This document shows positions 12,429 through 63,221 of a stretch of 63,221 nt of DNA, piece by piece (within the stretch, counting starts at the first letter, position 1; the number at the start of each line of letters is the position of its first letter). The DNA comes from an uncultured Mycoplasmatota bacterium (lineage in GTDB: Bacteria; Bacillota_I; Bacilli_A; RF39; UBA660), in assembly GCA_946554325.1 (NCBI GenBank), contig CAMNSB010000001.1:1-63221 (forward strand). The letters run 5' to 3'. The translations under genes and the position numbers were made by a program. The notes under the pieces were generated by a model. That model was not told where the DNA came from, searched no databases, and saw only the letters and a list, made by a program, of their open reading frames with translations.

Positions 12429-12437
12429 CATAAGATA
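12429..12437 (+). promoter_or_regulatory. Candidate mother-cell (sigma-K/E type) -10 element CATAAGATA upstream of the cotD-like gene
   Basis: Matches the CATA---TA pattern, but no convincing -35 element lies at the usual spacing. Confidence 0.25.
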
Positions 12438-12460: not shown

Positions 12461-12682
12461 ATGTTTAGACATGATCAAACGCTTTATAATGAAGCAAATA
12501 TGCAAACTGAGATTAATGGTAATAATAATACAGTAGAAAATGATATGAATATTGATATTAACATGAATAGTGGTACTGCTATGCAAAATAGTGGTTGTTG
12601 TCAAGGTCAACAACCTATTAATGAAGGTGTGAGAGAAAGATGTGTTCATAGAACTTTCGTTCATGAAGTTCCACAAGTATGA
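12461..12682 (+). CDS. cotD: 5' segment of a split CotD-family spore coat gene (ends ...RCVHRTFVHEVPQV*)
   Basis: AGGAGG RBS. The Cys/His-rich sequence aligns with the B. subtilis CotD core only when joined to 17526..17655. The stop codon is supplied by the inserted DNA. Confidence 0.7.
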   Translation: MFRHDQTLYNEANMQTEINGNNNTVENDMNIDINMNSGTAMQNSGCCQGQQPINEGVRERCVHRTFVHEVPQV

Positions 12683-12781
12683 TAATTTATGACAGACTAA
12701 GTTTTAAAGAGAGAATAAGTACAAATTTAAAGGCATTTAAATGTCTTTTTGTGTGATATAATGAAATAGAAGGTGATACTT

Positions 12782-13606
12782 ATGAATATTTTAATGATTA
12801 GTAATATAGATGCAGATGAAAAATTAGAAGATATATGGCTTGCTAGAGCTTTTCAAAAAGATGGTCATAAGGTAGCGATAGTTGATAAGAATTATGATGA
12901 AAAACTTGAATCTTTATTTGATGTTTTTTTGCTAAGGAATACTTGGGATACTGATGCGAATATAGAAACCATTAAAGAGAAATCTAATTTTCGACTAAGA
13001 ATCATTAATAAAAATCTCCCACGTATTAATTTTGATGGTAAATATGATGGAAAGAGCAAAGAATATCTTGTTCGTTTATATAAAAATGGCTATCCCGTCA
13101 TTCCAACTGTCGATAATATTGAAGATTTACAAATACTAGATAAATGTAATAAAATTTTATTAAAGCTTAAAGATAGTTATGATGGAATAGGACAAATGGT
13201 AGTAGACAAACAACAATTAGAAAAAAACTTTACTGATTCATATGTAATTCAACCATATATGGAATTTCTATCTGAGGTACAATTTTATTATATAAAAGAT
13301 AAATTCGAATATGCACTAGAGTTTATTCCAAGTAAAGTTCCAATTTATCCCGATGCAATAAAATATGAACCAAATGAAAATGAAATGAAATTAGCAGATG
13401 AATTTTCTAAATTAAATGAAAATTATTATGGTATTCAAAGAATTGACTTTATTAAACTTAAGGATGGAACACTTCTTTTGACAGAGATTGAAGATATAGC
13501 TCCCTATTTAGATTTAGATTGTGTTGAAGAAAAAATAAAAAATAAATTTATTTTGGATTATAAAAATATGGTATATGAGTATATGAAAAATATAAATAAT
13601 GATTAG
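12782..13606 (+). CDS. ATP-grasp-like protein (hypothetical)
   Basis: C-terminal ...GIQRIDFIKLKDGTLLLTEIEDIAPYL resembles the ATP-grasp Mg/ATP-binding strand. The ATG at 12782 follows a GAAGGTG RBS. Confidence 0.45.
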   Translation: MNILMISNIDADEKLEDIWLARAFQKDGHKVAIVDKNYDEKLESLFDVFLLRNTWDTDANIETIKEKSNFRLRIINKNLPRINFDGKYDGKSKEYLVRLYKNGYPVIPTVDNIEDLQILDKCNKILLKLKDSYDGIGQMVVDKQQLEKNFTDSYVIQPYMEFLSEVQFYYIKDKFEYALEFIPSKVPIYPDAIKYEPNENEMKLADEFSKLNENYYGIQRIDFIKLKDGTLLLTEIEDIAPYLDLDCVEEKIKNKFILDYKNMVYEYMKNINND

Positions 13607-13631
13607 TAAATAATGAAAGGATGTAAGATTA

Positions 13632-14375
13632 ATGAATATAACTAAAATAAAAGGAGAATTAATTAGTCAAAAAGAATCAAAGTTTAAAGGAAATATATAT
13701 CATTATTCACAAGTTAATTTTTCCTATAATTCAAATAAGATAGAAGGTAGCAGGTTAACCAGTGATCAGACTGAAGCCATATTTGATACTTCATCTTTTA
13801 TTCCTAAGAGTGATGATTTGATAAAATTAGATGATTTAACTGAATCTAAGAATCATTTTAAATTATTTGATTATATGTTAGATAATGTTGATAATAAGTT
13901 ATCTAAAGAAATGATTATCAAAATGAATAAGATATTAAAAAGAAATACTAGTGATGAAGAAAATCCTAGATATAATGTTGGAGGATTTAAAATAGTTCCT
14001 AATATGATAGGTCTTGTTAATGTTATTAATACAACTGCACCAGAAGATGTAGAAAAAGAAATTGATAAATTAGTTTTTGAATATAATGCAAAAACTAATA
14101 TTACTTTAGAAGATATTATTGATTTTCATTATAAATTTGAGAAAATTCATCCCTTTGGAGATGGAAATGGAAGAGTTGGTAGAATTATAATGTTTAAGGA
14201 ATGCCTAAGAAATAATATTATGCCATTTATTGTATTAGATGATGACAAACCTTATTATATGAGAGGTTTAAAAGAATATGAAAATGATAAAATGTTTTTA
14301 ATTGATACTATTAAACATGAACAAGACTTATATGAAAAGATTTGTGAGGAATTATTAAATTTTGAAATACAATAA
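13632..14375 (+). CDS. Fic/DOC family protein (putative AMPylase)
   Basis: Canonical Fic motif HPFGDGNGRVGR. Confidence 0.9.
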   Translation: MNITKIKGELISQKESKFKGNIYHYSQVNFSYNSNKIEGSRLTSDQTEAIFDTSSFIPKSDDLIKLDDLTESKNHFKLFDYMLDNVDNKLSKEMIIKMNKILKRNTSDEENPRYNVGGFKIVPNMIGLVNVINTTAPEDVEKEIDKLVFEYNAKTNITLEDIIDFHYKFEKIHPFGDGNGRVGRIIMFKECLRNNIMPFIVLDDDKPYYMRGLKEYENDKMFLIDTIKHEQDLYEKICEELLNFEIQ

Positions 14376-14402
14376 GATATTAATTTTAAGGGTGTTTTAT
14401 AC

Positions 14403-15311
14403 ATGGTAGATATTCATTCACATACTACATATTTTGATGGAAGTTCTAGTGTAGATGAACTTTTAAGTGAAGCACAAAAATTAAATTTGAGTTTGCTTTC
14501 AATAACTGATCATAATACAATACAAGCTCATTTTGAATTACAAAATTCTAATATAAGAGATAGGTTTAAAGGAGAAATAATATCAGGAATTGAAATAACT
14601 ACAACTTACAAGGGAGAAACAATAGGGGTATTAGGTTATGGTTTTGATTTAGAAACTATGCAGAAATTTTTAGATGCTAATGTACTTTCATTTGGACAAA
14701 AACAAATAAAAGAATATGATCTAATAAAAAATAGGTATAATGCCATAGGAGTAATATTTGATGAAAATAATATTAAATTTGATCCAAAAGTTGAATCTTG
14801 TAGACCAGCATTTGCTATTGAAATAAAAAAACATCCTGAAAATTATAAATTTTTCTTAAATCAAGAATCGATAAATACAGCTAGTGGATTTACTAGGAAT
14901 GAAGTATATAATCCTAAAAGTCCATTATATGTTGATGAATCATCATTGTTTCCTAGCTTAGAAACAGCAATACAAATGATACATAATTCAGGAGGACTTG
15001 CCTTTTTAGCACATACTTTTGCTTATTCTCCTAATATAGCAAATGAGTTGTTAAATATAATAAATAATTATGAACTAGATGGATTGGAGTGTTTTTATAC
15101 AACTTTTACAAAAGAACAATCTGATTATTTAGTAAGTGTTTGTAACGATAGAAAACTGTATATGAGTGGAGGTAGTGATTTTCATGGAACTAGAAAAATA
15201 AATCATAACTTAGGTACTGGACAAGGTAATTTGCATATTGATGAGTCTGTTGTTGATAATTGGGTAAGTGATTATATATCATCATTTGATAGTGTTAAAA
15301 ATATTAAGTAA
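14403..15311 (+). CDS. PHP-domain metal-dependent phosphoesterase
   Basis: VDIHSHTTYFDGS, SITDHNT and GGSDFHG motifs. Confidence 0.85.
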   Translation: MVDIHSHTTYFDGSSSVDELLSEAQKLNLSLLSITDHNTIQAHFELQNSNIRDRFKGEIISGIEITTTYKGETIGVLGYGFDLETMQKFLDANVLSFGQKQIKEYDLIKNRYNAIGVIFDENNIKFDPKVESCRPAFAIEIKKHPENYKFFLNQESINTASGFTRNEVYNPKSPLYVDESSLFPSLETAIQMIHNSGGLAFLAHTFAYSPNIANELLNIINNYELDGLECFYTTFTKEQSDYLVSVCNDRKLYMSGGSDFHGTRKINHNLGTGQGNLHIDESVVDNWVSDYISSFDSVKNIK

Positions 15312-15321
15312 AAAATTTAAT

Positions 15322-15367
15322 CATCCTATAAATTTTATTAATTTAAGAATTTTAGGATGTTTTTTTA
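15322..15367 (+). terminator. Intrinsic terminator of the ATP-grasp/Fic/PHP operon
   Basis: CATCCTA-AA ... TT-TAGGATG stem followed by a T8 run. Confidence 0.7.
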
Positions 15368-15669
15368 TGGCATAAATTATTATAAAATAAGGGTATTTCC
15401 TTAATACCATCCTACATAGTAGGATGAATTTTGTAAGTACGAAATAAGAATTGTGTATATAATTTTCTTTATTTTAAAAGGAAAACTATGTATTGATACA
15501 CAATTTTCTTATCCTGCTGTTTTATAATTTATTAAATTATGAATATTTTTAGGATGATAGATAAAACTTTCTATACTTTATGACTTGACTCAATTTCTTA
15601 GTGGAGGTATCATGCATCATGCAAAAAGGAGATGTTTATGATAATTAGAAAGAGAATGAGTGCTTATAA

Positions 15670-15718
15670 GTAATACTAAATATATGTGTAATTTAAATAT
15701 TATACAATTTAGTATTAC
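15670..15718. repeat. Perfect 12-bp inverted repeat (GTAATACTAAAT ... ATTTAGTATTAC) with a 25-nt spacer, upstream of the small ORF and recombinase
   Basis: Read directly from the sequence. Confidence 0.85.
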
Positions 15719-15765
15719 TAAAACTAGTGATTTATCCATAAGTTTAAGTGAGGTGCTTAAAATAT

Positions 15766-15942
15766 ATGGATAAGTACAAAATTAATTATATCTATAATAA
15801 AAATAATGATATAAATGATGTTTTTATAAAAGTTTTAAATAAGGAACTTAAAAAATATATCCAAATGATTTGTAAAAATGAAAATTGTGAGGTACCATCA
15901 TCATGTACTTATTTATCTCAAGAAAGGAGAAAAAGTTGTTAG
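15766..15942 (+). CDS. Small hypothetical protein overlapping the recombinase start (possible accessory or directionality factor)
   Basis: GAGGTG RBS before ATG 15766. 58 aa. No recognised motif. Confidence 0.3.
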   Translation: MDKYKINYIYNKNNDINDVFIKVLNKELKKYIQMICKNENCEVPSSCTYLSQERRKSC

Positions 15943-17498
15943 AGAGTTTAAATAAGATATATAATGTTGGACTTTATATAAGATTATCTAGGGAAGATGA
16001 TGATAAAACTTTAGAAAGTGAGAGTATTACAAATCAAAAGAGCTTATTACTTCAATATGTTAAAGAAAATAATTTAAGAGTATATGATATTTATATTGAT
16101 GATGGATATAGTGGAACAAATTTTGAAAGACCTGATTTTAATAGATTATTAACTGATATTGAATTAGGTAAAATAAATATGGTTATTACTAAGGATATGT
16201 CAAGACTTGGAAGAGATTATATTGGTACTGGTAATTTAATCGAAAAGTATTTTCCAGAACATAATGTTAGATATATAGCTGTTACTGATAATATAGATAC
16301 ATTTTTAGATAATTCTAATAATGACATTGCACCATTTAAAGCTATTATGAATGACATGTATGCTAAAGATATATCTAAAAAAATAAAATCTAGTTTAAAA
16401 GCAAAAATGAAAGAAGGAAAATGGGTTGGAGGAAGAACTCCGTTTGGATATGATCAAGATAAAGATAATAAAAATCATTTAGTAATAAATCCAGAACAAG
16501 CAATTGTTGTTAAAAGAATATTTGATATGTGTTTAGAAGGTTTATCATTCTTTAAAATAGCCAAACAACTTACAAATGAAGGAATAAAAACCCCAGCACA
16601 ATACTATAACTTTGAATGGAAAAATAACTACAATTTAAAATATGGAGAGTGGCATTCAAAAACCATAAGAGATATTTTAACTAATAGAATGTATATTGGT
16701 GATATGGTACAAAATAGAAGAAGTAAAGTTAATTATAAAGTGAAAAAAGTGATTAAAAATAATCCCAATGATTATATAGTTGTAGAAAATACTCATGAAG
16801 CAATTATAGATAAAGGAATATTTTATGAAGTTCAAAAAAGAATGCCTAAAAATAAGGGGCGAAATGAAAAAAAAGAGATTCATTTATTAGATGGGTTATT
16901 ATATTGTGGTAATTGTGGACATCGAATATCCATACAATCCAGAAGAAAAAAAGATAATAGATGTTATACAATTTGCAATTATTATAGGACTTATATGAAA
17001 CAAAAACTTTGTACAACTCATTCTAATAACTATGATGAATTAGAGAAAGTTATAATCAATTCATTAACTAATATCTGCTTAAATTATATTAATAAAGATA
17101 AAATTAAAAATAATGTATTAAATAATTTAACTGAAGATAATAAATTAAATAATAAAAAAGAGTTAGAAAGACTAACTAACGACATTAAGCAAATAAATGA
17201 TAATTTAGATATTATTTATATTGACAAGTTAAATAATAAAATAACTGAAGAACAATTTGAAAGGGTAAAAGTTAAGTTAGAAAATGAACTAAATATAAAA
17301 CAAAAAAGATATAATGAATTAAATAATAGTATTAATGATAATATTAATGAAGAATCTAAAAATAAAATGATTGTGAAATATATTAATAAGTTTTTATCTA
17401 TGAAAGAACCAAGTAGAGAATTAATAATTAATTTAATTGAAAGAATTGAAATATTTGAAGATAAAACTATAAATATAAAAGTTAGTTTTAGCAAATAA
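15936..17498 (+). CDS. Large serine recombinase (resolvase catalytic domain + recombinase domain + zinc ribbon + coiled coil)
   Basis: YIRLSREDDD...SITNQ catalytic region and CGNCGH...C..CNYY zinc ribbon. The TTG at 15936 follows an AAGGAG RBS; the ATG at 15903 is an alternative start. Confidence 0.9.
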   Translation: MLESLNKIYNVGLYIRLSREDDDKTLESESITNQKSLLLQYVKENNLRVYDIYIDDGYSGTNFERPDFNRLLTDIELGKINMVITKDMSRLGRDYIGTGNLIEKYFPEHNVRYIAVTDNIDTFLDNSNNDIAPFKAIMNDMYAKDISKKIKSSLKAKMKEGKWVGGRTPFGYDQDKDNKNHLVINPEQAIVVKRIFDMCLEGLSFFKIAKQLTNEGIKTPAQYYNFEWKNNYNLKYGEWHSKTIRDILTNRMYIGDMVQNRRSKVNYKVKKVIKNNPNDYIVVENTHEAIIDKGIFYEVQKRMPKNKGRNEKKEIHLLDGLLYCGNCGHRISIQSRRKKDNRCYTICNYYRTYMKQKLCTTHSNNYDELEKVIINSLTNICLNYINKDKIKNNVLNNLTEDNKLNNKKELERLTNDIKQINDNLDIIYIDKLNNKITEEQFERVKVKLENELNIKQKRYNELNNSINDNINEESKNKMIVKYINKFLSMKEPSRELIINLIERIEIFEDKTINIKVSFSK

Positions 17499-17523
17499 AA
17501 AGTCTACCAAAAAAGGACACACA

Positions 17524-17655
17524 CATGTTTGTCCAATTCATACTCGTGTTATTAATCATCATGTTTATCGTCATACTTATCGCCCTGCATATACTTGTAG
17601 TGAAGAGAATGTAGTTAGTAATGTTCAATGTGGTTCTTGTTCTCAATTTCGTTAA
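17524..17655 (+). CDS. cotD: 3' segment of the split CotD-family gene (HVCPIHTRVINHHVYRHTYRPAYTCSEENVVSNVQCGSCSQFR*); absent from the ORF track
   Basis: Open frame with no start codon or RBS. It continues the CotD His-rich pattern. Confidence 0.7.
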   Translation, partial: HVCPIHTRVINHHVYRHTYRPAYTCSEENVVSNVQCGSCSQFR

Positions 17656-18829: not shown

Positions 18830-19005
18830 AAATATTTGAATTAAAAAGAGTGTGTAAAAAATTCTGTGTAAATGACATCTAACCACGATATTTTGGAACT
18901 TTAATAGTTCCTTTTTTGTTATCTAAATAATAACATATATTATTTAATTGTCAAAGAATTTACAGACTCATTAAAAAAGCGTGTAGCTTATTTACACACT
19001 TTCTG

Positions 19006-47447: not shown

Positions 47448-47798
47448 GTGAATAAAATTATGTTTTTGATTACAACCAAAGTGAATCAGGGAATTATTTT
47501 TTTACGATTATATGGATCTTTAAATAAGAAAACAATCAAAGAGTTTTCAGAGGAGATTAATTATCTCTTATATGAACAAGGAACTAAAAGATTGGTTATT
47601 AATTTTAATGAAGTGAATATTACAAGTGATGCTATTCTTAGTGTGATTGGCAATAAACTCGTTGAAATTTTCTTAAGTTGTGGTGAAGTGGCATTATGTG
47701 GCCTTAGTCAGGATCGGAAAGATTCTATTGGTACTAGAGGAGAACAATTATTTTTTGTAGATAGTGAGTTAGATGCATTTCGATATTTAAGTTATTAG
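47448..47798 (+). CDS. spoIIAA: STAS-domain anti-sigma-F antagonist (SpoIIAA-like)
   Basis: STAS-like length and pattern. Lies immediately upstream of the sigF-like gene. GTG start. Confidence 0.65.
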   Translation: MNKIMFLITTKVNQGIIFLRLYGSLNKKTIKEFSEEINYLLYEQGTKRLVINFNEVNITSDAILSVIGNKLVEIFLSCGEVALCGLSQDRKDSIGTRGEQLFFVDSELDAFRYLSY

Positions 47799-47806
47799 GA
47801 GGAAAA

Positions 47807-48442
47807 ATGGACGACATACTAGAATACGAAAATTTAGTTTGGAGTATTGTTATGAAGTATGGTGGTTATTTTGATAAAGATGATTTATATCAAGTAGGAA
47901 TGATGGGACTTATTTCTGCATATCAGCATTTTGATAAGACAAAAGGTGTAAAATTTTCTACTTATGCTTATCAATATATATTTGGAGAAGTTCATAAGTA
48001 TGTTTCGGAAAGTAGAGTAGTTCGAGTGAGTCGCGATATGCAAAAATTAAATCGTTCTATTGAACAAGGACGGGATGTTCTAAGACAAACTCTAATGCGA
48101 GAACCGAGTGACTTTGAGCTTTCTACCTTTTTAGAAATTGATGAGAAAACATTAATAGAAGCGAAAGCTTCAGGTGAGATGATAAAAAGCTTGGATTCCA
48201 TGACGAACGATGATATCAATTTATATGACCATTTAGGTTGTGAAGAAAAACAATTGACCTCAGAAATATTGGATTTAAAAACGGAACTTGCCTCTTTAGA
48301 TACAGATGAGCAAAGATTAATCTACAGTCGATATTTTATGGATTTAACACAACAAGAAGTGTCCCGTGATTTAGGGATTTCTCAGGTGCAGGTTTCTAGA
48401 AAGGAGAGTAAAACATTAAATAAATTGAAGACGAGACTGTAA
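47807..48442 (+). CDS. sigF: Sporulation sigma factor, SigF-like
   Basis: Region 2 DLYQVGMMGLISAYQHFD...FSTYAYQYIFGEV and region 4 GISQVQVSRKESK. The spoVA genes lie downstream, as in Bacillus. Confidence 0.8.
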   Translation: MDDILEYENLVWSIVMKYGGYFDKDDLYQVGMMGLISAYQHFDKTKGVKFSTYAYQYIFGEVHKYVSESRVVRVSRDMQKLNRSIEQGRDVLRQTLMREPSDFELSTFLEIDEKTLIEAKASGEMIKSLDSMTNDDINLYDHLGCEEKQLTSEILDLKTELASLDTDEQRLIYSRYFMDLTQQEVSRDLGISQVQVSRKESKTLNKLKTRL

Positions 48443-48469
48443 GGAAAATGAAAAATTTTTCCTTTTTTT
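48441..48469 (+). terminator. Intrinsic terminator after sigF
   Basis: AAGGAAAA ... TTTTCCTT stem followed by a T-run. Confidence 0.7.
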
Positions 48470-48501
48470 GTATAAAAGAAGAAATTTGTTGAACACTAGT
48501 A

Positions 48502-48957
48502 ATGGTGATAAAAATGGTAAATAAAAAATATGAGAAAGTAGTGAGCCAGCATAAGCCAAAAGAAGAACGTGGAATGCATGCAGTTATTGCGTTTATTGTA
48601 GGTGGTCTTGTTGGAGTTTTAGGGGAGATACTAATACAAGTTTTTTGTCAGAAATTTCATATATCTAGAAGTGAAGCTTCTGTATTTATGATGATTACAT
48701 TAATCTTTATTGCTTCCCTTTGTACGGCTTTAGGATTTTTTGACAATTTAGTTAATTTTGCACGGTGTGGTCTTTTGATTCCCATTACAGGGTTTGCTCA
48801 TTCTATGACTTCTGCTGCCATTGACTATCGTAAGGAAGGTCCAATCTTCGGCCTTGGTAGTAATATTTTTAAACTGGCTGGGTCTGTTATTTTATATGGG
48901 GTAGTTTCTGCTTGGTTTTTTGGAATAATACGTCTTTTAATTGGAGGTGGAGCATGA
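48502..48957 (+). CDS. spoVAC: Stage V sporulation protein AC
   Basis: Membrane protein with the pattern AFIVGGLVGVLGE. Conserved spoVAC-AD-AE order. Confidence 0.85.
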   Translation: MVIKMVNKKYEKVVSQHKPKEERGMHAVIAFIVGGLVGVLGEILIQVFCQKFHISRSEASVFMMITLIFIASLCTALGFFDNLVNFARCGLLIPITGFAHSMTSAAIDYRKEGPIFGLGSNIFKLAGSVILYGVVSAWFFGIIRLLIGGGA

Positions 48958-49949
48958 GTTCTAAATATAAAAATGTTTATTTGCAAGAGACAGCAACTGT
49001 AGTGGGTCCCTATGAAAAAGAAGGACCATTAAGCAAGTATTTTGATAAGAAGTATGATGACTTATATTGTGGTGCTGATTCATGGGAAAAGGCGGAAGTA
49101 AAAATATTGCAGGAAAGCCTTACTATGTTACTTAAGAAAAAGGGGATAAAAAAAGATAAAATTGATTTGGTGATTTCTGGGGATTTACTTAATCAGATTA
49201 CGTCATCTAGTTATGCTGGTAGTCCTTTTAATGCACCATTTTTAGGTATTTATAGTGCTTGTGCTACTAGTATGGAAGCGATGATACTTGCCTCTACTTT
49301 TATAGATTCTAAGAGAGCAAAGAATGTAGTTATTGCTACTAGTTCTCATAATATGTCTAGTGAAAAGCAATTTCGCAATCCTACAGAATATGGGGCACCT
49401 AAACCAATGACAGCTACTTTTACAGCAACTGGTGGGGCATCAGCATTACTTTCTTCAGAAAAAAGCCCTATTCGAGTGGAGTCAGGGACGATTGGAAGAA
49501 TTATTGATTATAATCAAACGGATCCATTTAATATGGGTGCTGTTATGGCAGGGGCTGCAGCAGATACTATCTATAGACATTTAACGGATATGAAAAGAGA
49601 TGCTAGTTACTATGATCTTATTTTAACTGGGGATCTTGGAAAATATGGAAAAGAGATATTAAAAGAATATATGATGGAAGAATATAAAATTGATTTAAGT
49701 AAAAACTATAATGATTGTGGTGTTATTTTATATGATACTGAAAGACAAACACAAGTACAAGCTGGAGGATCTGGTCCTGTATGTAGTGCACTCGTTAATT
49801 TTACTATGGTCATTGATAAGTTAAAAAAGAAAGAATTAAAAAGAGTTCTATTAGTGGCAACTGGAGCCCTTTTCTCGCCAACATTCGTTTATCAAAAGGA
49901 AAATATTTTGAGTATTGCTCATGCAGTTAGTTTGGAGGTGGCGGAATGA
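48954..49949 (+). CDS. spoVAD: Stage V sporulation protein AD
   Basis: Thiolase-like fold protein (GIYSACATS). ATGA overlap with spoVAC. Confidence 0.88.
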   Translation: MSSKYKNVYLQETATVVGPYEKEGPLSKYFDKKYDDLYCGADSWEKAEVKILQESLTMLLKKKGIKKDKIDLVISGDLLNQITSSSYAGSPFNAPFLGIYSACATSMEAMILASTFIDSKRAKNVVIATSSHNMSSEKQFRNPTEYGAPKPMTATFTATGGASALLSSEKSPIRVESGTIGRIIDYNQTDPFNMGAVMAGAAADTIYRHLTDMKRDASYYDLILTGDLGKYGKEILKEYMMEEYKIDLSKNYNDCGVILYDTERQTQVQAGGSGPVCSALVNFTMVIDKLKKKELKRVLLVATGALFSPTFVYQKENILSIAHAVSLEVAE

Positions 49950-50296
49950 TTTTTCTATATTCATTTTTATTCGCAGGACTTATCTGTATGATTTCTCAGA
50001 TTATTTTAGATAATACTAAGTTAACTCCAGGACATATTACAAGTATTTTGGTAGTTGTGGGGGCAGCCCTTGATACGTTTAGTATTTATGATAAAATTGT
50101 TGAAGTCGTTGGTGGAGGTGCGATGGTTCCTATTACTAGTTTTGGTCATTTATTAATTCATGGTGCTCTTGCTAAGGTGGATGTGATGGGACCTATCGGT
50201 ATTGTTATGGGAATGTTTGATCTTACTGCTTCTGGTATTACAGCTGCTATCGTCTTTTCTTTCATCTTCTCTTTATTTTTTAAACCTAAAAATTAA
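49946..50296 (+). CDS. spoVAE: Stage V sporulation protein AE (AEB)
   Basis: 116-aa membrane protein. ATGA overlap with spoVAD. Confidence 0.85.
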   Translation: MIFLYSFLFAGLICMISQIILDNTKLTPGHITSILVVVGAALDTFSIYDKIVEVVGGGAMVPITSFGHLLIHGALAKVDVMGPIGIVMGMFDLTASGITAAIVFSFIFSLFFKPKN

Positions 50297-54512: not shown

Positions 54513-55060
54513 AGAAGAAATCAAAGAAAACTAATAACACGAAGCAAAAAATTAAAAGAAAGAGAAATAACACTACTAAAATTAAAACAAAGAAGAAGAA
54601 AACTAAGAGAAAGAAAAGTAAGAAGAGCAGAGATTTATTAAATTATTAAATTAAACTAGTTAGAAAGGTAAAACTACTAGTACCAATCAAAGATGTTTGA
54701 GAAAGTAAAGACTACAATCCTCATACACAGGTATAAGAAACACGAGTCGGTGTAATCCTTATTCCGAATTGGTAGAATCGACCATATATTTACAATTAAA
54801 TAGTAACAAGGAGTCAGTACAGTTTATTAGTACTTCCTCCTGTTATAGTAGATACACAATTATATCCTCTATCCTTTAATGGTACGAGGATATTTTATAT
54901 ACCCATTAACTAATTAAAATATCATAGTTTGATAAATGGTTCACACTTTGTAAAAGTTAATTAGTTGTGTGGTTTATACTACTTATCCATTTAAGACCTC
55001 ACAATTGGTCTAAAATTGGTTAATAACTTGGTAATCTTTAAAAGATACATTTACAATTTT

Positions 55061-55405
55061 ATGAAAGGACTTATTCCAATGAAATCATGGTTTATACAAT
55101 TTGAAAATAAGATAAACAAAACAAGAATGACAATTTATAACAATGGTATAGTTTATGGAACAGAACGAAATGAGAAACTCTTTATTCTCTCTTCCACTTG
55201 TATAGAACAACTAAAAGATATTATCAATGAGAATATGTATATGTTTAAAACATTAGAATATCAAAACGAAGGACGTTCTCCTATAGTATTAAGAGTAAAT
55301 GATACTAGTAGGAAACATAGAAACATTAAAATTGTTGGTTGGAGTCAAACGGAAAGACTTCTAAACATAATTATGGATGAAAACAATCATATTAAGAACT
55401 TTTAA
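55061..55405 (+). CDS. Hypothetical protein
   Basis: Start ambiguous (ATG at 55061 or 55079). No motif recognised. Confidence 0.4.
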   Translation: MKGLIPMKSWFIQFENKINKTRMTIYNNGIVYGTERNEKLFILSSTCIEQLKDIINENMYMFKTLEYQNEGRSPIVLRVNDTSRKHRNIKIVGWSQTERLLNIIMDENNHIKNF

Positions 55406-55532
55406 TTAGGGTCTTGTATCTAATTTCAGATTGTGGTTATCTATAATTAGCAATCGTTTTTCCAAACAAAAAAGAAATATATAATACTATATAACATAGA
55501 TACTTTATGTTTATATAATAAGATATATTTCT

Positions 55533-55913
55533 CTACTTATGATCCATTAAACCCTTTACATATGCTTCTACTAATTTCTGTTTATCCTTAGGTAAAGAAG
55601 AAATGTTATTTATTAGTATGCTTAATTCAGAATCCTTACTCAATGAATTAAGTTTTTCTATTGGTAAAGGATTATCAGTTCTACCCAAAAGAAAATCTAT
55701 ATTACAATTTAAGAAATTGGCTATTGATACAAGGTTCGTAACACTAGGAAGCTTATTTCCATTTATGTAAGAATTGATGGATGAATCACTTATACAGGCG
55801 TTCATTGCTAATTTAGTTACCGAGTAATCTTTGGAGTCAATTAACTTCTTCATGTTACTCATGTTTATAGTCTCTCTTACTGCATCATAATGTTCTGTAT
55901 TATTGATAATCAC
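55533..55913 (-). CDS. XRE/cI-like HTH repressor
   Basis: YSVTKLAMNACISDSSINSYINGNKLPSVTNLVSIANFLNCNIDFLLGRTD. The GTG start follows a GAGGTG RBS. Divergent from 56021..58438. Confidence 0.8.
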   Translation of the reverse strand: MIINNTEHYDAVRETINMSNMKKLIDSKDYSVTKLAMNACISDSSINSYINGNKLPSVTNLVSIANFLNCNIDFLLGRTDNPLPIEKLNSLSKDSELSILINNISSLPKDKQKLVEAYVKGLMDHK

Positions 55914-56020
55914 TTATATCACCTCAATATAATTTTAACAACTAGAAAGCAAAATAAATTGCACTGGAGGTATTGTCTAAACTACTTCAAGTATGATATT
56001 ATTAACTTGAGGTGGTAGCG

Positions 56021-56827
56021 ATGAAAATACAAATGTATAGTCCTATCAAAGAAGAAGCAGGCGTTATAATGGCTTTTTCCAAGTTGCATGAGGAGTTAGG
56101 ATTTCCTAAACTTGTTCCTTCCTCTGCACGAGGCTTTGATATTGACGATATTGAGTACAAAGGTAAAAGAGTAACAGTCGAGTTTGAGTATCTATCAGAA
56201 AACTTTATTAGTCATGGTCATATAGAACAAATGAAAGATGGGAGAAATTATGTCTTAGTTTGTTATGAAGACAATTGTAGTATTCTACAGAAATTACGAG
56301 AGATTTATAATAAGACTAACCTAGAAGTAATTGAGTTAAAGAACTATATTGAAATAAAACCAGATATTATTTCAGATGATGAAGATTCAATAGAATACAT
56401 TGTACTAAACTATAATCCATATATGGCAGGACTTCCTATTGATTCTTGGAAATCAGCTAACGTATATGGTATCAATGCACAATTTTCAAACAATCATATT
56501 ACCGCTGGTAGTAAGATCTTATTTAAGCAAGGAGACTTTATTGTTGCTAGATGTGAAGTAGTAAAATATGAAACCTACGAAACTCCACAAAACGATAACG
56601 AATGGCGATTACTTCAAAATTTATATAACTATCCTTTAGGTTTATATAATTTAACATTAGAGGAAGTAAAAGAAAATATGGCACATGGTTATATATTCTA
56701 TGACTCCTTTACTACATTTGATGAAAGAAAGGTCTCATTTAGTAAAGCATTACCAAACAGAAATATGGGACATCAAGGTATGATAAAAATAACAAGAGAA
56801 GACTATTATAAGTTGATGGGGTATTAG
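56021..56827 (+). CDS. Hypothetical two-domain protein: N-terminal PD-(D/E)xK-like nuclease fold + C-terminal PUA-like (EVE/ASCH-like) domain
   Basis: GFDIDD...KRVTVEFEYLSENFISHGH...VLVCYEDN resembles a restriction-endonuclease-like core. IVLNYNP...KQGDFIVARCEVV resembles PUA-like domains. By-eye inference only. Confidence 0.4.
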   Translation: MKIQMYSPIKEEAGVIMAFSKLHEELGFPKLVPSSARGFDIDDIEYKGKRVTVEFEYLSENFISHGHIEQMKDGRNYVLVCYEDNCSILQKLREIYNKTNLEVIELKNYIEIKPDIISDDEDSIEYIVLNYNPYMAGLPIDSWKSANVYGINAQFSNNHITAGSKILFKQGDFIVARCEVVKYETYETPQNDNEWRLLQNLYNYPLGLYNLTLEEVKENMAHGYIFYDSFTTFDERKVSFSKALPNRNMGHQGMIKITREDYYKLMGY

Positions 56828-56829
56828 AT

Positions 56830-58047
56830 ATGAAGAAGAAAAAGGTAGTGTTGATAGTAGGATTTGTCATACTAGGAGTACTCGTTCTAAGTTTAAGTGG
56901 ATATATTGTCTACGATAAACTATTATCGAAAAACGTAGGAACTATAAGCAAGAAAACAAGTAATTATAATATCGATGATTATATAACAGTTAAAGATTTT
57001 AATTATTATACTAATGTAGATGGTCAAGTTAAAAAATTGGAATTTAAAAACTTACCAGCTACTCTAACATCAGAGTTCTATAATAAGCACAGTGAATTTA
57101 CAAATAAAATGTCTGGATCTGCTGAATATTCAAACACCAATTTATCTAATGAGATTTTCTATGATATATCAGGTAATGTATTATCTGTATATGAACTAGA
57201 TGAATCATATCTTATAGAATATCCTTATGGCGAAGAACAAGGCCCAATGGATTATACAACATATGATTTTTATAGCATAAATATCAATTTGGATGAGCAA
57301 AAAATAATAACGAATCAGGAATTATTGGAGATGTATAAAATAAATCCTTCCGATGTATTCGAGAAGATTTTAAATGATATAGCAGACTTACATAAAGATG
57401 ATGGCCTTCTAATCCCTACTGAAAGTCAAGCGTTTGATAATATGTCCAGTAAAGAGTTCAAGAAAAATATAAATAAATATATAAAACAGATTAACAATAG
57501 ATTTGATAAAATCGTATTGTATGTTAGAAATAATAATGTTTATGTTGCTTACGATGAAGAAGATATAGTCAGGCTTATTGGCTTAGAGGCTCAAACACGT
57601 TATGCAGCAGTTGAATCCGATATAGAAACCCATGTCTTATCTCTTGGTAATATAGAATATGATAAATCAAAAGAAAAAGCTAATATAGAGAATAATCCAA
57701 ATTATGAGTATGATCCTTATAATGCAAATGACTCAATCTTAAATAAATTTCTAGTTGCTCCGATGGTAGAATGTCCTAATAAAACTTTAGGAGAAACCAT
57801 TAAGGAATTTAATACATACGAAAATTTATCAGCAATTTATAAAATGACTAAAATACAAGATAGAGATTATCTTAAATTAAAAACGATAGGACCTAGTGAT
57901 ACTATGATTGCTATAGTTAGTTTAGATGAAGATGGAAAGGCATTTATAGCAGAAGCGGAAGCAGAATCTATTAAAAGGAATCTTAGTGATCCTGATGAGA
58001 TTTCTTTATACTCAGTTTTAGCAGGAACTGAAATGTTATGTAATTAG
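56830..58047 (+). CDS. Hypothetical membrane-anchored extracytoplasmic protein
   Basis: N-terminal TM helix. 405 aa. No motif recognised. Confidence 0.5.
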   Translation: MKKKKVVLIVGFVILGVLVLSLSGYIVYDKLLSKNVGTISKKTSNYNIDDYITVKDFNYYTNVDGQVKKLEFKNLPATLTSEFYNKHSEFTNKMSGSAEYSNTNLSNEIFYDISGNVLSVYELDESYLIEYPYGEEQGPMDYTTYDFYSININLDEQKIITNQELLEMYKINPSDVFEKILNDIADLHKDDGLLIPTESQAFDNMSSKEFKKNINKYIKQINNRFDKIVLYVRNNNVYVAYDEEDIVRLIGLEAQTRYAAVESDIETHVLSLGNIEYDKSKEKANIENNPNYEYDPYNANDSILNKFLVAPMVECPNKTLGETIKEFNTYENLSAIYKMTKIQDRDYLKLKTIGPSDTMIAIVSLDEDGKAFIAEAEAESIKRNLSDPDEISLYSVLAGTEMLCN

Positions 58048-58063
58048 TTAAAGGAGAGGTAAA

Positions 58064-58438
58064 ATGAAGAAGTTATTTGTATGTATATGTTTAGGTTTAA
58101 TGATTATTGGAGTTACAGGATGCAGTGATGATGAACAATCAAGCGAAAGTGGAACTTCTAAACAAATATCAGGTTGTTTTATTCCAGAAGAAGGAGCAAG
58201 CAGTTATAATACACGTAAAGTTACTAAAATGTGTATATCTGGAGATAATGTTACTTTATATGTAAATGGAGCGAGTGATGAATTTTATGCTCAGCATCTT
58301 CCAAATCAAAATCCTAAAATGGTATATATAGCAAATCAATATACTGATTTGTTTGCTTGCAAAGAAGTTAGGGATTCAAACAATATAATATGTAAAATAG
58401 CAGATGATGCATCATATGTTGAGTGGATAAAACAGTAA
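58064..58438 (+). CDS. Small lipoprotein
   Basis: Lipobox IGVTGC. Confidence 0.65.
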   Translation: MKKLFVCICLGLMIIGVTGCSDDEQSSESGTSKQISGCFIPEEGASSYNTRKVTKMCISGDNVTLYVNGASDEFYAQHLPNQNPKMVYIANQYTDLFACKEVRDSNNIICKIADDASYVEWIKQ

Positions 58439-58650
58439 ACTTAAAGAATTAGATTGACTTGCTTAATGCAAGTTTTTCTTTTGCTCTAAAATCTCCCACT
58501 ATCACGTAATAAATGTCTAGTAGTTGTCAGTATTCAAAAGAAATTTGTTTATTATTGGTATTTTTTGTCATTATATCTTGTAATTAAATTTATTTGTGTC
58601 AGACTTCAAAGTACGAACTTTTGTTTATGTTCGTGTTTGGAGGTGAAACT

Positions 58651-59073
58651 ATGAAATGGATTTATGATGACGGAGGAAGAAGTAAGTATTTCAAAGGTAC
58701 AACAGAAGATTGTGTATGTCGTGCAATCGCAATAGCAACAGGTAAAGATTACAAAGAAGTTTATGATATGATAAACGATTACATTAAACAAGAACAGCTT
58801 GATGATATGTATGTTGAAAATGCACGTACTGGAGTCAGTAAAGAGATATGTACTAAACTTTTGGAGTCATTAGGTTGGAAATGGCATGCGTGCATGATAT
58901 TCGGAAAGGGCTGCACCACTCATCTAAAAAGTGGAGAGTTACCCAAAAAAGGGACTTTGATTGTCTCTGTATCAAAGCATCTTACTTGTGTCAAAGATAA
59001 TATTATTTATGATACCTTTGATCCAAGTCGTAATGGAACAAGATGTGTTTATGGCTATTATGCAAAAGCATAA
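58651..59073 (+). CDS. Hypothetical protein typical of mobile elements (MKWIYDDGGRSKYFKG...CVCRAIAIATGKDY)
   Basis: GGAGGTG RBS before ATG 58651. Confidence 0.5.
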   Translation: MKWIYDDGGRSKYFKGTTEDCVCRAIAIATGKDYKEVYDMINDYIKQEQLDDMYVENARTGVSKEICTKLLESLGWKWHACMIFGKGCTTHLKSGELPKKGTLIVSVSKHLTCVKDNIIYDTFDPSRNGTRCVYGYYAKA

Positions 59074-59091
59074 ATTGGAGGTGTTGAAGAA

Positions 59092-59271
59092 ATGCTAAAA
59101 CAGATATGTCCTAAATGCAATAAGGAATATACCAGTCGCCCTGCTATTTCTCGTATTGATAATAAAACAAGAATATGTCCTGCTTGTGGAGTAATTGAAG
59201 CGATAGAAAATATAATTGAAAGTAATAAAAGAAGTAAAAGAAAGAAGAAATTGGTTAGGTTGGTGCATTAG
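59092..59271 (+). CDS. Small zinc-ribbon protein (59 aa; CPKC...CPAC); absent from the ORF track
   Basis: GGAGGTG RBS. The stop abuts the next start. Confidence 0.5.
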   Translation: MLKQICPKCNKEYTSRPAISRIDNKTRICPACGVIEAIENIIESNKRSKRKKKLVRLVH

Positions 59272-59637
59272 ATGGATGAAGGTATTACAAGACTTAACAA
59301 AATGTTTGAAGGACAACAAGATATAGCATTAACCAAAGTTGTGAATCATTTAAAGGAACTAAAAGATATTGACACTACTATATTCTTAAATGATGAAAAG
59401 GATCTAAAAGGTATGTGTGATTATGTAAAATCAAGGGCTAAAGAGTTTGCAGTAAATAATGTAGCAATGATAATTGATGAAACAGTTTATGGATGGAGTT
59501 TAAATTATTGGCAGTTATCCAATGAAGAGTTAGGAATTAAAAAGGAAGAACCAAAACCAATTATTCCTAAACCTAGTAATGTTGTAACAAAACAAGTAGA
59601 AGAAACACCACCGAGAGCACAATTAACTTTATTCTAA
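59272..59637 (+). CDS. PcfK-like protein
   Basis: Pattern K..C.YV...A......V..IIDETVYGWSLNYW, followed by a PcfJ-like gene. Recalled family resemblance only. Confidence 0.45.
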   Translation: MDEGITRLNKMFEGQQDIALTKVVNHLKELKDIDTTIFLNDEKDLKGMCDYVKSRAKEFAVNNVAMIIDETVYGWSLNYWQLSNEELGIKKEEPKPIIPKPSNVVTKQVEETPPRAQLTLF

Positions 59638-59638
59638 A

Positions 59639-61075
59639 ATGGCTTATATGAATAAGCAGTTACAACATTATGTGGAATTGTCAGACACACACTCCGTTCC
59701 TACTTCATTTGAAAAGTTTATCAATAAACATAAAGCGATAGAAAACATAATCCTAAAAAAGGGACAGACTTGTTACTGTACACATTGTAGTCATGAATTT
59801 ACTTCTAATGCTAAAATAAATAAAGAAACAAGGTGTCCCTACTGTAAGTACAAGTATTTAGTTAGAAGATTCACATTAAAAAACTATGAAACCAAGAAAG
59901 ACTTGATACTACTAGATAAAGTGGAAGATAAATTTATATTAAGAGTATTCGAACTATATTCCAAGTATAACCCACAGTTCAAAGATTTTGATTATTCATG
60001 TACCGAGTATCGAAGAGTATTCTTTGATGACAATAGTTACAACCAAGTTGTTGAGGGAGATAATGTATTTCACACAATGGGATTATCAGTAGTTTGGCAC
60101 TTCAAGAAAAGAAGTTGTTGGAAGAAGAAAGAATGGTCTTGGTACTACAGAAGTTATGGTGATACGATTGGTTACATTTGTCCCTACAATATCAAACAAT
60201 TATTAAAAGGAACAAAATATCAATACACGCAGTTATGGAAGTTAGTATCGAGAATTGAACCCTTTAATTTAGTTGAATTATTCCAAAAGTGTCTTAATGA
60301 CTACTCTAATACATTTGAACTATTAGTAAAAGCAAAACTTTATCATTTAGCTTTAGTAAGTAATCGTTTCGGTAGTACAAAGAAATCATTTGAAGAAAGG
60401 TTTGGAGTTCCTAAGTCTTTCCTTCCGTTTATGCAAAAGCACAATATTACTTATGATGAGCTTGATGTACTAAGGTGTTGTAAAACTCCAAATATACGAT
60501 TATTACGTGCATTAAAGGGGTGTCATAACCTACTGTGGTTATCTTATCGTATTGACTTTCTAATGGCATGGAGATGTGGTTTACTATCTCAAAGAACGGA
60601 ACATGAATATAAGGATTATTTAACCTTTGCTATTCAATTAGGATATGATATGAAAGATAAAACTATACTCTATCCTAGCAATTTAAGGCAAGCACACGAT
60701 AAATTAGAAAACTTAGTCGAAATATGTCGAAACGAAGCAAACTCCAGATTATTAAAGGAAAGATATGAGCAGTTAAAACACAATATATACAAAACTAAGA
60801 AGTTTATAATCTATCCAGCAAGTTCTAGTGATGAGTTAATCAACGAAAGTTTTCAACAATGCAATTGTACTAAATCATACATTGAAAAAGCAGCGTTATC
60901 AGAATGTGATTTATACTTTATGCGATTAGTAAGTAATCCAACAAAATCACTCGTTACTGTTGAGGTTAGGAATAATCAAGTAGTACAAGCAAAAATCAAA
61001 CATAATCAAGAACCAACTAAGGAGCAATGGAGATTCCTAAATAGTTGGAGTAAAAACATTCTTATTAAAAATTAG
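59639..61075 (+). CDS. PcfJ-like protein with an N-terminal zinc ribbon
   Basis: CYCTHC...CPYC motifs, the size, and the position after the PcfK-like gene. Confidence 0.45.
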   Translation: MAYMNKQLQHYVELSDTHSVPTSFEKFINKHKAIENIILKKGQTCYCTHCSHEFTSNAKINKETRCPYCKYKYLVRRFTLKNYETKKDLILLDKVEDKFILRVFELYSKYNPQFKDFDYSCTEYRRVFFDDNSYNQVVEGDNVFHTMGLSVVWHFKKRSCWKKKEWSWYYRSYGDTIGYICPYNIKQLLKGTKYQYTQLWKLVSRIEPFNLVELFQKCLNDYSNTFELLVKAKLYHLALVSNRFGSTKKSFEERFGVPKSFLPFMQKHNITYDELDVLRCCKTPNIRLLRALKGCHNLLWLSYRIDFLMAWRCGLLSQRTEHEYKDYLTFAIQLGYDMKDKTILYPSNLRQAHDKLENLVEICRNEANSRLLKERYEQLKHNIYKTKKFIIYPASSSDELINESFQQCNCTKSYIEKAALSECDLYFMRLVSNPTKSLVTVEVRNNQVVQAKIKHNQEPTKEQWRFLNSWSKNILIKN

Positions 61076-61096
61076 TTAAAATTCAGGGAGGTAAAG

Positions 61097-61777
61097 ATGA
61101 ATGAATTAAATATATACGATAGATGGAATTATAAGTATAGACTATTATATTGTCTTATGCTTAACTACTATCGCAATCATTATGCAGATAATAAATTTAA
61201 AGGGAAAATCCTAGTATTATGTACTAGTAAAAAGAGGTTAATGGATGAATATGATAAATTATATTCTACAATTAGATATTTTACAGTTGAAGATGTAAAA
61301 ACGTTATATGGCTTTATAGGACGTCATGATAAAGAGTTAAAACAATTGTTTGAAGATTTAGAGGAACATAATATTTATTTTGATTCTCTTATTCAAGGTA
61401 TTAAGAAAGAATATATATCGGAAAGAGCAACCTACAAAGAATGTATTTATGGGGATGTAGAGCATTTTCCAAGTGGAAAGAATATTACATTTATAAACTT
61501 TGAAGATGTAGATTTAATTTATGACAAACATTTAGTTAGAGAGATGTTTATCCCAGAACATTTTAATATTCGTAGACATCCAGATAGTAATTGCAATGAA
61601 TTATGTAATATCTTAACAAAATATACTAGAGAAATTACTAAAGCAAAAGCTATTTTAAAATCTAATAATGCATTAGAAACAGAATACCTATCATTAAATG
61701 TATTTATCAATGGTGAAGATGGACTGGCATTTATAGATGAAGTTAATAATCGACTAACTATGTATGATGGTGAATAA
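61097..61777 (+). CDS. Hypothetical protein
   Basis: GGGAGG RBS. Confidence 0.45.
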   Translation: MNELNIYDRWNYKYRLLYCLMLNYYRNHYADNKFKGKILVLCTSKKRLMDEYDKLYSTIRYFTVEDVKTLYGFIGRHDKELKQLFEDLEEHNIYFDSLIQGIKKEYISERATYKECIYGDVEHFPSGKNITFINFEDVDLIYDKHLVREMFIPEHFNIRRHPDSNCNELCNILTKYTREITKAKAILKSNNALETEYLSLNVFINGEDGLAFIDEVNNRLTMYDGE

Positions 61778-62052
61778 TGAAGTTCAATTTAGGAAGTTTA
61801 GTAATGACTGTAGGTATTGATGATGCAATACATCAAGATAAAAACTACTTAACAGAATTATTAAATTGTTTAAGGAAGTACATTAAATGTGATTGGGGAG
61901 ATTTAGGCGAATACGATAAAAGAGCTAATGATATAGCTATTAAAAATGGCGATAGGATATTTGCTTCTTATAAAACATCAAAAGGAAAAGTCTACGTTAT
62001 TACAGAATGGGATAGATCTTGCACTACACTACTATTTGCTAATGAATATTAA
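61777..62052 (+). CDS. Plasmid-related small protein (..CDWGDLGEYDKRANDIAIKNGDRIFASY...VITEWDRSCTTLLFANEY)
   Basis: Conserved GDWGDL...ND.A...RI...Y...ITE.DRS.TT.L...EY pattern seen on conjugative elements. Confidence 0.55.
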   Translation: MKFNLGSLVMTVGIDDAIHQDKNYLTELLNCLRKYIKCDWGDLGEYDKRANDIAIKNGDRIFASYKTSKGKVYVITEWDRSCTTLLFANEY

Positions 62053-62065
62053 AGGGAGGTTAAAC

Positions 62066-62272
62066 ATGATACAATTAGAAGATTTGATTAACAGGTTTAT
62101 AAAGAATGAGTTAGAGATTGGAGTTTCATTTTCTAGTAACGCTAATAATGAAAATGTGATTGTTACTGTTAATGACTCTTCTTTAGACATTGCAACCTGT
62201 CAAAAGAATAATTGGATAAGGCACAATGTATATTATCGAGATGGTTCCCGTGAAGAATATTATGATAGATAG
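62066..62272 (+). CDS. Small hypothetical protein
   Basis: GGGAGG RBS before ATG 62066. The longer track ORF from 61946 overlaps the previous gene. Confidence 0.45.
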   Translation: MIQLEDLINRFIKNELEIGVSFSSNANNENVIVTVNDSSLDIATCQKNNWIRHNVYYRDGSREEYYDR

Positions 62273-62423
62273 CATTGGTGTTATAAGGTGGTTCAAGTGT
62301 GGTTATTTTGTTTCTAGGTTGATGTTATATTGTCAATTCAATTAAAAACGTCTCACAATCGTTTAAAAGTGGTGAATTATATTACCACTTCTCTTTTAGA
62401 GCATATGGTTCAAAGAATCAATT

Positions 62424-62529: not shown

Positions 62530-62550
62530 CATATAGAAGGAAGGTATAAA

Positions 62551-63153: not shown

Positions 63154-63176
63154 ATAGAACCAATCAATGATATGAA

Positions 63177-63209: not shown

Positions 63210-63221
63210 ATATGAGTAAAT

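Follow-up and report, generated by a model that had tools for sequence, protein, structure and literature searches.

The 63,221-nucleotide contig CAMNSB010000001.1 (assembly GCA_946554325.1, from an uncultured Mycoplasmatota bacterium), the whole of which is referred to here as the window, carries between ffh and rpoZ a gene for a small, Cys/His-rich protein, here termed CotD-like, which is split in two by an intervening element of 4850 bp (12676..17525, + strand, one copy of the crossover dinucleotide CA being counted in this length), all of whose genes are co-oriented with the host gene. The 5′ piece comprises codons 1–71 (12461..12673, +); its open reading frame (ORF) continues past the junction to a stop at 12680..12682, so that ORF 12461..12682 encodes 73 amino acids (aa) with the C-terminal end …RCVHRTFVHEVPQV (HEVPQV before the stop). 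The 3′ piece, codons 72–114 plus stop (17524..17655, +), is without a start codon or ribosome-binding site (RBS) of its own; its frame translates as HVCPIHTRVINHHVYRHTYRPAYTCSEENVVSNVQCGSCSQFR, opening with HVCPIHTRVINHH and closing with SQFR before the stop. Removal of 12676..17525 in silico yields an intact 345-nt ORF of 114 codons, in which the element inserts at the CA of codon His72 (CAT) and the peptide spanning the junction reads …FVHEVPHVCPIHTR…. An initial annotation of the window had given these coordinates, together with those of two CACA copies at 12672–12675 and 17522–17525, and on re-reading the sequence all of them hold; the restored ORF could likewise be reproduced. It had further described the insert as relatively AT-rich, which is borne out (23.8% G+C, as against 29.7% for the window and 29–32% for the flanks), and had placed the stop codon of a recombinase gene 25 bp before the right junction, where the ORF does indeed end (17498).

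The joined protein matches 1106 database proteins, the best of which are uninterrupted, of the same length, and aligned across the junction; the closest, P0001 (112 aa), is 94% identical at 100% coverage of the joined protein. On contigs encoding P0001 the gene order is ffh, the 112-aa gene, rpoZ, recX, …, prsA, which is the context found in the window minus the insert, and the joined DNA is collinear in alignment with the intact gene on a related contig. The P0001 allele is, moreover, known in both states, occupied (L113) and empty (L001): the two contigs align with 97.4% identity across 4840 bp, up to a break that falls precisely after …GTACCTCA / …GAAGTACCTCA, i.e. after the CA of the left junction. 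Thus the uninterrupted homologues and insert-free relatives on which the initial annotation had made its proposal depend both exist. The same results bear on the suspicion that the split might be an artefact, whether an assembly chimera or a misreading of two separate small genes, a suspicion that arises naturally when the window is a metagenome-assembled contig and the 5′ piece is called alone as a 73-aa gene. However, the truncated 73-aa product occurs in identical form (P0012) on 11 contigs from independent samples, the same junctions are seen on these 11 contigs of the allele and in 64 other genomes, the 3′ piece could not be started by itself, and uninterrupted homologues are the majority form. 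Because of the spanning homologues, the 11 contigs and the empty/occupied pair of one allele, both versions of this explanation can be set aside, their probability being negligible.

The left junction, attL (12648..12701, +), has its crossover CA at 12674..12675, and its right half, AGTATGATAATTTATGACAGAC, is the P′ arm; the right junction, attR (17498..17551, +), has its crossover CA at 17524..17525, and its left half, GTCTACCAAAAAAGGACACACA, is the P arm. Within the same family (described below) the junction is conserved, in 43 complete elements and in over 20 partial ones, giving the consensus sequences …CATGAAGTaCCa-CA-aGtGTGATAATTTATGATAGAC for attL and …TCTAtCAAAAAaGGgCAaggA-CA-TgTttgtCCaaTtcATAC for attR, in which the CA is invariant (43/43 attL and 43/43 attR) and the adjacent bases vary. 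Two details of the initial annotation need correction in this light: it had taken CACA as the shared core, where that of the family is CA only, the additional CA being peculiar to the window, and it had centred attB on ACATGT, where the 43 attL and 43 attR sequences place the crossover core at CA instead. The attP that can be reconstructed is 46 bp long, with the CA dead centre and terminal inverted repeats GTCTATCA…TGATAGAC (TCTATCA/TGATAGA), a predicted anatomy that is as expected for a serine integrase.

A scan with the element's large serine recombinase (LSR), using one genome per species, turned up 517 relatives. The best 80 were analysed; all come from uncultured gut metagenome-assembled genomes (MAGs) labelled Bacilli, Tenericutes, Mollicutes or Erysipelotrichaceae, their sources being rabbit, goat, mouse, human and others. 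At 64 of the 67 loci where the LSR is at least 62% identical, a CotD-like gene is interrupted at this very His codon, with one or both pieces flanking the element. Complete elements number 44 and range from 2.8 to 11.3 kb, the smallest unit packing the LSR, a small ORF termed F1 and one cargo gene into 2.8 kb; 43 of them have both host junctions, and the remaining one (L049) is bounded on the left by a tandem attP-type junction. In all 43, excision in silico at the CA leaves an intact ORF of 82–150 aa, with the conserved core …HEVPH(V/I)CP(I)HT…N.H.Y.HTY.P.Y.C.EE…. When 1.84 billion representatives were searched by profile, 158 members of the host-gene family emerged, and among the 150 listed about 30 are N-pieces (P0290, P0298, P0308 and P0342, for instance, end …HEVP(Q/H)…) and about 18 are C-pieces (such as P0289, which begins …KGQG/HVCPINT). 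Roughly one third of the family representatives (at 50% identity, among those listed) are therefore pieces cut at the junction, and the uninterrupted form is the majority. Cassettes of this kind interrupt that codon in no fewer than 64 further species-level genomes, and the element is therefore probably a new relative of the skin-type elements excised during sporulation, one that is very compact and spreads horizontally.

A sister clade of recombinases, 55–58% identical and accompanied by its own F1 homologue, is found at loci L082–L093, L097 and L098 (e.g. L089 4397..11613; L092 7695..11574). Its target is the G-D codons of the LysM motif (Y.V..GD/.LW.IA) in proteins combining Amidase_3 or M23 with LysM, and its junctions are also conserved (left …GG/GAT ACAATTTTTATGGGGAATAATGAGTA, right TTACATAAAAATTGTATCAGG/GAT); the elements measure 3.2–7.9 kb, and two of the loci are IMG/VR “viral” contigs. 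Since L070 and L088 both come from MAG Lapin-019__bin48, one genome can hold elements of the cotD type and the LysM type together.

The LSR gene (15936..17498, +) probably starts at TTG 15936 (MLESLNKIYNVGLYIRLSRED…). This start is preferred to ATG 15903, from which a 531-codon ORF is open, because the RBS is conserved, the homologues open at MLES… and the upstream ATG is unconserved, and it is probably also why the exact 531-aa form has no database record. The product contains the Pfam domains Resolvase (PF00239, 85 bits), Recombinase (PF07508, 88 bits) and Zn_ribbon_recom (PF13408, 37 bits), all exceeding their cut-offs, and matches the PHROG 95 integrase with E 1e-114; judged by these three domains and by short att sites with a central crossover dinucleotide, it is an LSR. 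Immediately upstream lies F1, a conserved ORF of 58 aa (MDKYKINYI…DINDIFIKVLNKELKKY…; 15766..15942, +) whose stop overlaps the RBS and start of the LSR gene. It is present at 40 aa or more in 39 of the 44 elements, and in shorter or more divergent form in at least two more (L067, L080). Database clusters of F1 number 253, all unnamed or hypothetical, and nearly all of the 120 listed are 52–62 aa long; it matches no Pfam, PHROGs or PADLOC family, and the AlphaFold2 (AF2) model (pLDDT 66, low-to-moderate confidence) has an extended N-terminus and two helices. Because a homologue 34–41% identical precedes the sister-clade LSRs in the same position, F1 and the LSR are on comparative grounds a conserved functional module, in which F1 is a candidate recombination directionality factor (RDF) or accessory protein.

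The module is preceded by a putative promoter, TTGACT-17 nt-TATCAT (15585..15613, +), assigned by its match to the consensus and kept as TTGAC(T/A)-17-TA(T/G)CAT in most elements. There follow a short leader ORF (MFMIIRKRMSAYK, ending in AYK before the stop; 15632..15673, +), which ends at the foot of a hairpin, has 13–18 codons in most elements and survives in frame a 12-nt length difference between subgroups, and a structured leader (15669..15775, +; RNA fold z-score -5.0). The latter comprises hairpin 1 (AGTAATACTAAAT…ATTTAGTATTACT; 15669..15719, +), with a perfect stem in its 51 nt, and hairpin 2 (15730..15775, +), in which TTATCCATA is paired with the F1 start region TATGGATAA and which encloses the RBS of F1. 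Both hairpins recur in most elements. The consensus structure fits 19 sequences; where a substitution affects one side of a stem it is in every case G-U compatible on the + strand, and no double compensatory change is seen among them. Rfam gave no credible match in the window, and none for the leader. In L021 and L048 the left arm of hairpin 1 is absent. A hydrophobic ORF on the minus strand (15617..15739) was considered as a type-I toxin and rejected, since in most elements it meets a stop right after MDK.

The remainder of the element is cargo. The first gene (12782..13606, +; family F6), which encodes 274 aa from ATG 12782 in an ORF open from GTG 12773, is found in 5 of the 44 elements; it has no Pfam, PADLOC or PHROGs family, and its matches to ATP-grasp-type NCBIfam models are very weak. 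The second (13632..14375, +), present in 31 of the 44, encodes a Fic-domain protein (Pfam Fic 54 bits; PADLOC PDC-S04 E 2.7e-99; SoFic E 9e-21), a candidate anti-phage defence gene, and the third (14403..15311, +) a PHP-domain metallophosphoesterase (Pfam PHP 33.9 bits; NCBIfam RNase RNM-like 92 bits, which is far under the cut-off). A terminator-like hairpin (15408..15426, +) marks the boundary between cargo and recombinase module, and a second, CATCCTA…TAGGATG followed by a T-run, can be read from the sequence at about 15320–15365 (+). Elsewhere in the family the cargo includes MazE/MazF, a DpnII endonuclease with Dam-type and other methyltransferases, a NERD plus Zn-ribbon protein, GNAT, ASCH and PDC-S13 proteins, and a defence-type reverse transcriptase. 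Neither the cargo of the window nor the cargo families examined include a relaxase or oriT-type gene, and PHROGs reveals no phage structural, packaging or lysis genes in the element, its matches being an integrase family (the LSR), function-unassigned families (Fic) and, weakly, a DNA-polymerase family (the PHP protein); among phage records, identity to the LSR goes no higher than 42%. Judged by its gene content, therefore, this is a non-phage integrative element, not a prophage or the remnant of one. IMG/VR classes as viral one 10.9-kb member of the family, L096 (1..10907), a contig that opens precisely at the attL junction. Its genes include two for Fic proteins, one for a defence-type reverse transcriptase (PADLOC RT, E 5e-37) and one for a PDC-S13 protein; among ORFs of at least 75 aa on it, none was noted that encodes a phage structural protein.

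The skin-like layout proposed in the initial annotation is present to the extent that a gene is split, an LSR lies at the end of the insert and deletion restores the ORF; however, what has inserted is not a domesticated prophage remnant but a member of a family of mobile cassettes of 2.8–11 kb. Identity to the window is 84–100% for the LSR and Fic proteins, exceeding the 67–94% found for the housekeeping protein Ffh. L015, for example, has an LSR 98% and a Fic protein 100% identical, with the same cargo, against 73% for Ffh and 64% for the host C-piece; L043, conversely, has Ffh at 94% but the LSR at only 84%, close hosts thus carrying more distant elements with other cargo. The host allele of the window itself occurs with two cargo sets (L008 and L013 differ from L009). 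Since LSR and cargo similarity lies so far above that of Ffh, the elements must be spreading horizontally, and on this comparison they are moving between distant hosts, with Ffh identities down to about 70%, rather than being fixed as domesticated remnants. An immobile, vertically inherited skin-like remnant, with developmental rearrangement as its sole remaining role, might have been supposed from an element that is compact, lacks phage and transfer genes and always occupies the same site, but is very improbable given that discordance, the different cargo on one host allele, the allele found both empty and occupied, and the tandem accretion in L049. In this last case (L049 202..8383) two elements lie in tandem: the first has an LSR (509 aa) and a gene of 338 aa followed by an intact attP-type junction, …ATCTATCAAAAAGGAGCAAGGA CA AGTGTGATAATTTATGATAGAT, at about 3385–3430, and the second, which is complete, ends in attR and the C-piece. 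The arrangement suggests accretion by attP x attR recombination, as in composites of the staphylococcal cassette chromosome (SCC).

As to the identity of the host gene, the initial annotation had assigned it to the CotD family. It is true that Spore-coat_CotD (PF11122) is the sole Pfam similarity, matched by 32 of 56 relatives at a best E of 8.3e-5 and each time over profile positions 8–56, but the joined protein scores 18.6 bits (E 0.0027) and does not reach the gathering score of 22; nor does any individual relative, the scores running from 17 to 21 bits (ten relatives at 17–19 or with none, remote relatives at 19–21). By comparison, a Bacillus subtilis CotD sequence scores 58 bits against PF11122, and hhalign aligned the family profile with it at E 7e-4 and 26% probability, with 38% identity over 40 columns. 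Because every score falls below the Pfam cut-off, the label “CotD-like” is used in preference to CotD; on these scores the gene is CotD-like, and not a member of PF11122. Upstream of it is a candidate −10 box of mother-cell type (CATAAGAT; 12429..12436, +), assigned by consensus, the canonical mother-cell −10 boxes being CATATTAT and CATATAAT (PMC3789822). The motif CATAnnnT stands 25–33 nt before the ATG in 23 of 32 unique upstream regions of the gene family, as against 6% of 733 background genes, and [CA]ATAnnAT is found in 30 of the 32, as against 13%, although kinship among the sequences inflates the corresponding P-values. No −35 element is evident upstream of the host gene. On balance, its expression by the mother cell appears probable.

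The host belongs to the uncultured low-G+C gut Bacilli that have genes for sporulation proteins. At 47448..50296 the window encodes a STAS protein (SpoIIAA-like, 116 aa), a 211-aa sigma-70-family factor, SpoVAC, SpoVAD (425 bits) and SpoVAEB, and these SpoVA and associated genes mark it as a putative endospore former. Between the STAS and sigma-factor genes there is no ORF for a SpoIIAB-type anti-sigma kinase, so that the cluster departs from the usual order spoIIAA-spoIIAB-sigF.

Precise excision by the LSR would of necessity rebuild the host gene. In the course of events proposed here, the LSR, probably with F1 as directionality factor, would recombine attL with attR; the element would exit as a circle bearing the 46-bp attP, and the chromosome would regain the 114-codon gene, to be transcribed from its own mother-cell-type promoter. 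The most likely setting would be the mother cell, which is terminally differentiated and in which skin, SPbeta, vfbin, vrin, gin and yin are excised too, so that the coat gene would be rebuilt where it is needed and the forespore chromosome would retain the element. Between excisions the element would carry its defence/toxin cargo, and the leader, by hiding the F1 start codon, would probably keep excision rare outside the triggering condition. On balance we favour sporulation-regulated excision that rebuilds the CotD-like gene in this manner, though by no means with certainty.

The chief alternative, which is appreciably less probable and on present evidence rather doubtful, is that a cassette resembling Tn4451 or an integrative and mobilisable element (IME) has found a safe harbour in a dispensable gene, that its carriers live without the full-length protein, and that excision is rare, serving transfer and having no link to development. 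A number of observations weigh against developmental excision, and several of them point directly to this alternative. The promoter of the F1–LSR module appears to be sigma-A-like and vegetative, and is not recognisably of the sigma-E or sigma-K type; the horizontal spread exemplified by L015 is clear, and the defence/toxin cargo is variable. Insertion by the sister clade costs the LysM proteins only their distal repeats, a truncation that looks harmless, and because that clade enters LysM repeats, the wider LSR+F1 family is evidently not confined to sporulation genes. A scan with two patterns for attP, as expected in the excised circle, gave zero matches in JGI metagenome contigs, the sole attP-type junction found being the tandem one in L049. 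Furthermore, the closest solved relative of the LSR is the catalytic domain of TnpX (E 2.9e-27), which both excises and integrates without an RDF, and an IME whose serine recombinase is site-specific typically lands in, and disrupts, a dispensable gene (PMC5704250).

Other points tell against developmental excision without bearing on this particular alternative. The sub-threshold Pfam scores set out above are one of these; another is that the exact joined 114-aa protein has no record in a collection of 15 billion proteins. Mutants of cotD in B. subtilis are affected only mildly. Because horizontal transfer is frequent, intact gene pieces may merely mean recent insertion and not selection. Read-through from the host promoter is unlikely as a trigger for the LSR, because the two terminator-like hairpins lie before the F1–LSR module and would shield it. 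The sequence ATCCATAAG upstream of F1 was tried as a sigma-E or sigma-K −10 box. It does match CATAnnnT, but only 5 nt part it from the RBS and an acceptable −35 is lacking; base-pairing to the start codon of F1 accounts better for its conservation, and so the idea of such a box is kept at low probability.

Set against the alternative of a cassette in a dispensable gene, however, is first the placing of the cut, which hits the middle of the most conserved core and leaves a 5′ piece without the whole His-rich motif; both pieces are intact and in frame at 43/43 complete loci. In addition the target has a −10 box of mother-cell type and the host has sporulation genes, the LSR has a conserved small ORF translationally coupled to it, as RDF-dependent elements do, the cargo examined holds no relaxase or oriT-type gene, and the known elements in genes of this kind undergo mother-cell excision.

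Excision in the mother cell and mobility can also be combined. In a more speculative joint reading, to which we attach only a low probability, these would be the smallest known elements intervening in sporulation genes and at the same time widespread mobile defence cassettes, for which excision would be a means of two-way transmission. The integrated copy kept by the forespore would provide vertical inheritance, and horizontal spread would follow if the circle, freed at lysis of the mother cell, were taken up by other spore formers and integrated at the conserved site coding for HEVPH/VCPIHT. The leader that hides F1 would then act as a mode switch, between integration (LSR alone) and excision (LSR plus F1).

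Two further features of the surrounding DNA may be recorded. The related contigs L001–L004 have a 476-aa gene without a Pfam family between recX and prsA (L001 7427..8857), where the window has a spacer of 176 bp only (18830..19005). Towards the right end of the window (55000..63221), a run of unannotated genes with HTH-like N-termini leads up to a small serine recombinase (62551..63153), which has a Resolvase domain (83 bits) and no other; this may be a second mobile element, truncated where the contig ends.

If the favoured reading is right, a structural gene of spore-coat type joins the genes that are rebuilt by programmed DNA excision, and the phenomenon extends to an uncultured lineage of gut Bacilli, in which it would be common, given the proportion of split pieces in the family. 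The minimal recombination unit (attL, F1, LSR, attR) can evidently be tiny, and would serve as a vehicle for anti-phage and toxin genes across distant hosts. Dozens of natural LSR/attP/attB triplets with a CA core, together with a candidate small RDF, would also provide material for work on recombinase specificity and directionality.

Interrupted genes named in the literature searched are sigK, spoVFB/spoIVFB, spoVR, spsM, gerE, kamA and yabG, and intervening elements of spore formers lie almost exclusively in mother-cell genes (PMC6957869). The initial annotation had held that cotD was undescribed as a host gene, and this agrees with that literature, in which no cot gene appears (Abe et al. 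2013, Mol Microbiol, lying outside its coverage). A close parallel is gin, in gerE of Bacillus cereus ATCC10987 (recombinase GirC with GirX), which is likewise non-phage, splits a very small mother-cell gene (the timing of the host gene being a prediction in the present case), combines an LSR with a small accessory factor (here a candidate), has a short att core in an imperfect inverted repeat, and carries non-viral cargo (PMC5595907). In contrast to the present element, gin is 28.6 kb long and has three recombinases, and its excision in mid-sporulation has been shown experimentally (PMC5595907); here there are 4.85 kb (2.8–11.3 in the family), a single LSR, another target gene, an uncultured gut lineage and an excision that is predicted.

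The unit attL-sprB-sprA-attR of SPbeta/phi3T (spsM/kamA, Bacillus subtilis), in which an RDF gene, an LSR gene and attR follow one another, is mirrored by F1–LSR–attR, and the SPbeta target is again a late mother-cell gene for the spore surface whose ORF is rebuilt by excision (PMC4191935, PMC6957869). The likeness of F1 to SprB is thus one of gene layout, by which F1 is a putative RDF; SPbeta is unlike the present element in being an active prophage, and its sprB has mapped sporulation and stress promoters, whereas here there are no phage genes. SPbeta has a size of 134 kb. The skin elements in sigK (SpoIVCA/Skr in B. subtilis; CD1231/CD1234 in C. difficile) have in common with it the LSR-mediated, in-frame reconstitution of a mother-cell gene (a predicted one in the present case) and a small RDF (here a candidate) (PMC5025042; PMC10747680), but are prophage remnants in a regulatory gene essential for late sporulation, in contrast to an interspecies-mobile element in a structural, coat-like gene. 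As for Tn4451/Tn4453 (TnpX), these too are Firmicutes elements of a few kb with an LSR, a 2-bp crossover and a circular intermediate (a predicted one in the present case), but they have low target specificity and a Mob relaxase and need no RDF (PMC5704250), whereas the present element has a strict site, a conserved F1 and no relaxase in the cargo examined; thus neither the relaxase/oriT module nor the low target specificity of the Tn4451 type is found.

The best NCBIfam similarities of the LSR are to the SCCmec recombinases CcrB and CcrC (about 112 bits) and to XisF of the fdxN element (106 bits), all far under the equivalog cut-offs of 375–900 bits, and hosts, targets and cargo differ. XisF is a developmental excisase of a terminally differentiated cell, and Ccr elements form tandem composites, with which L049 may be compared. 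The present family is unusual for its very small size, its non-phage defence cargo, the breadth of its horizontal spread within an uncultured lineage of the gut, and a conserved F1–LSR module with a structured leader.

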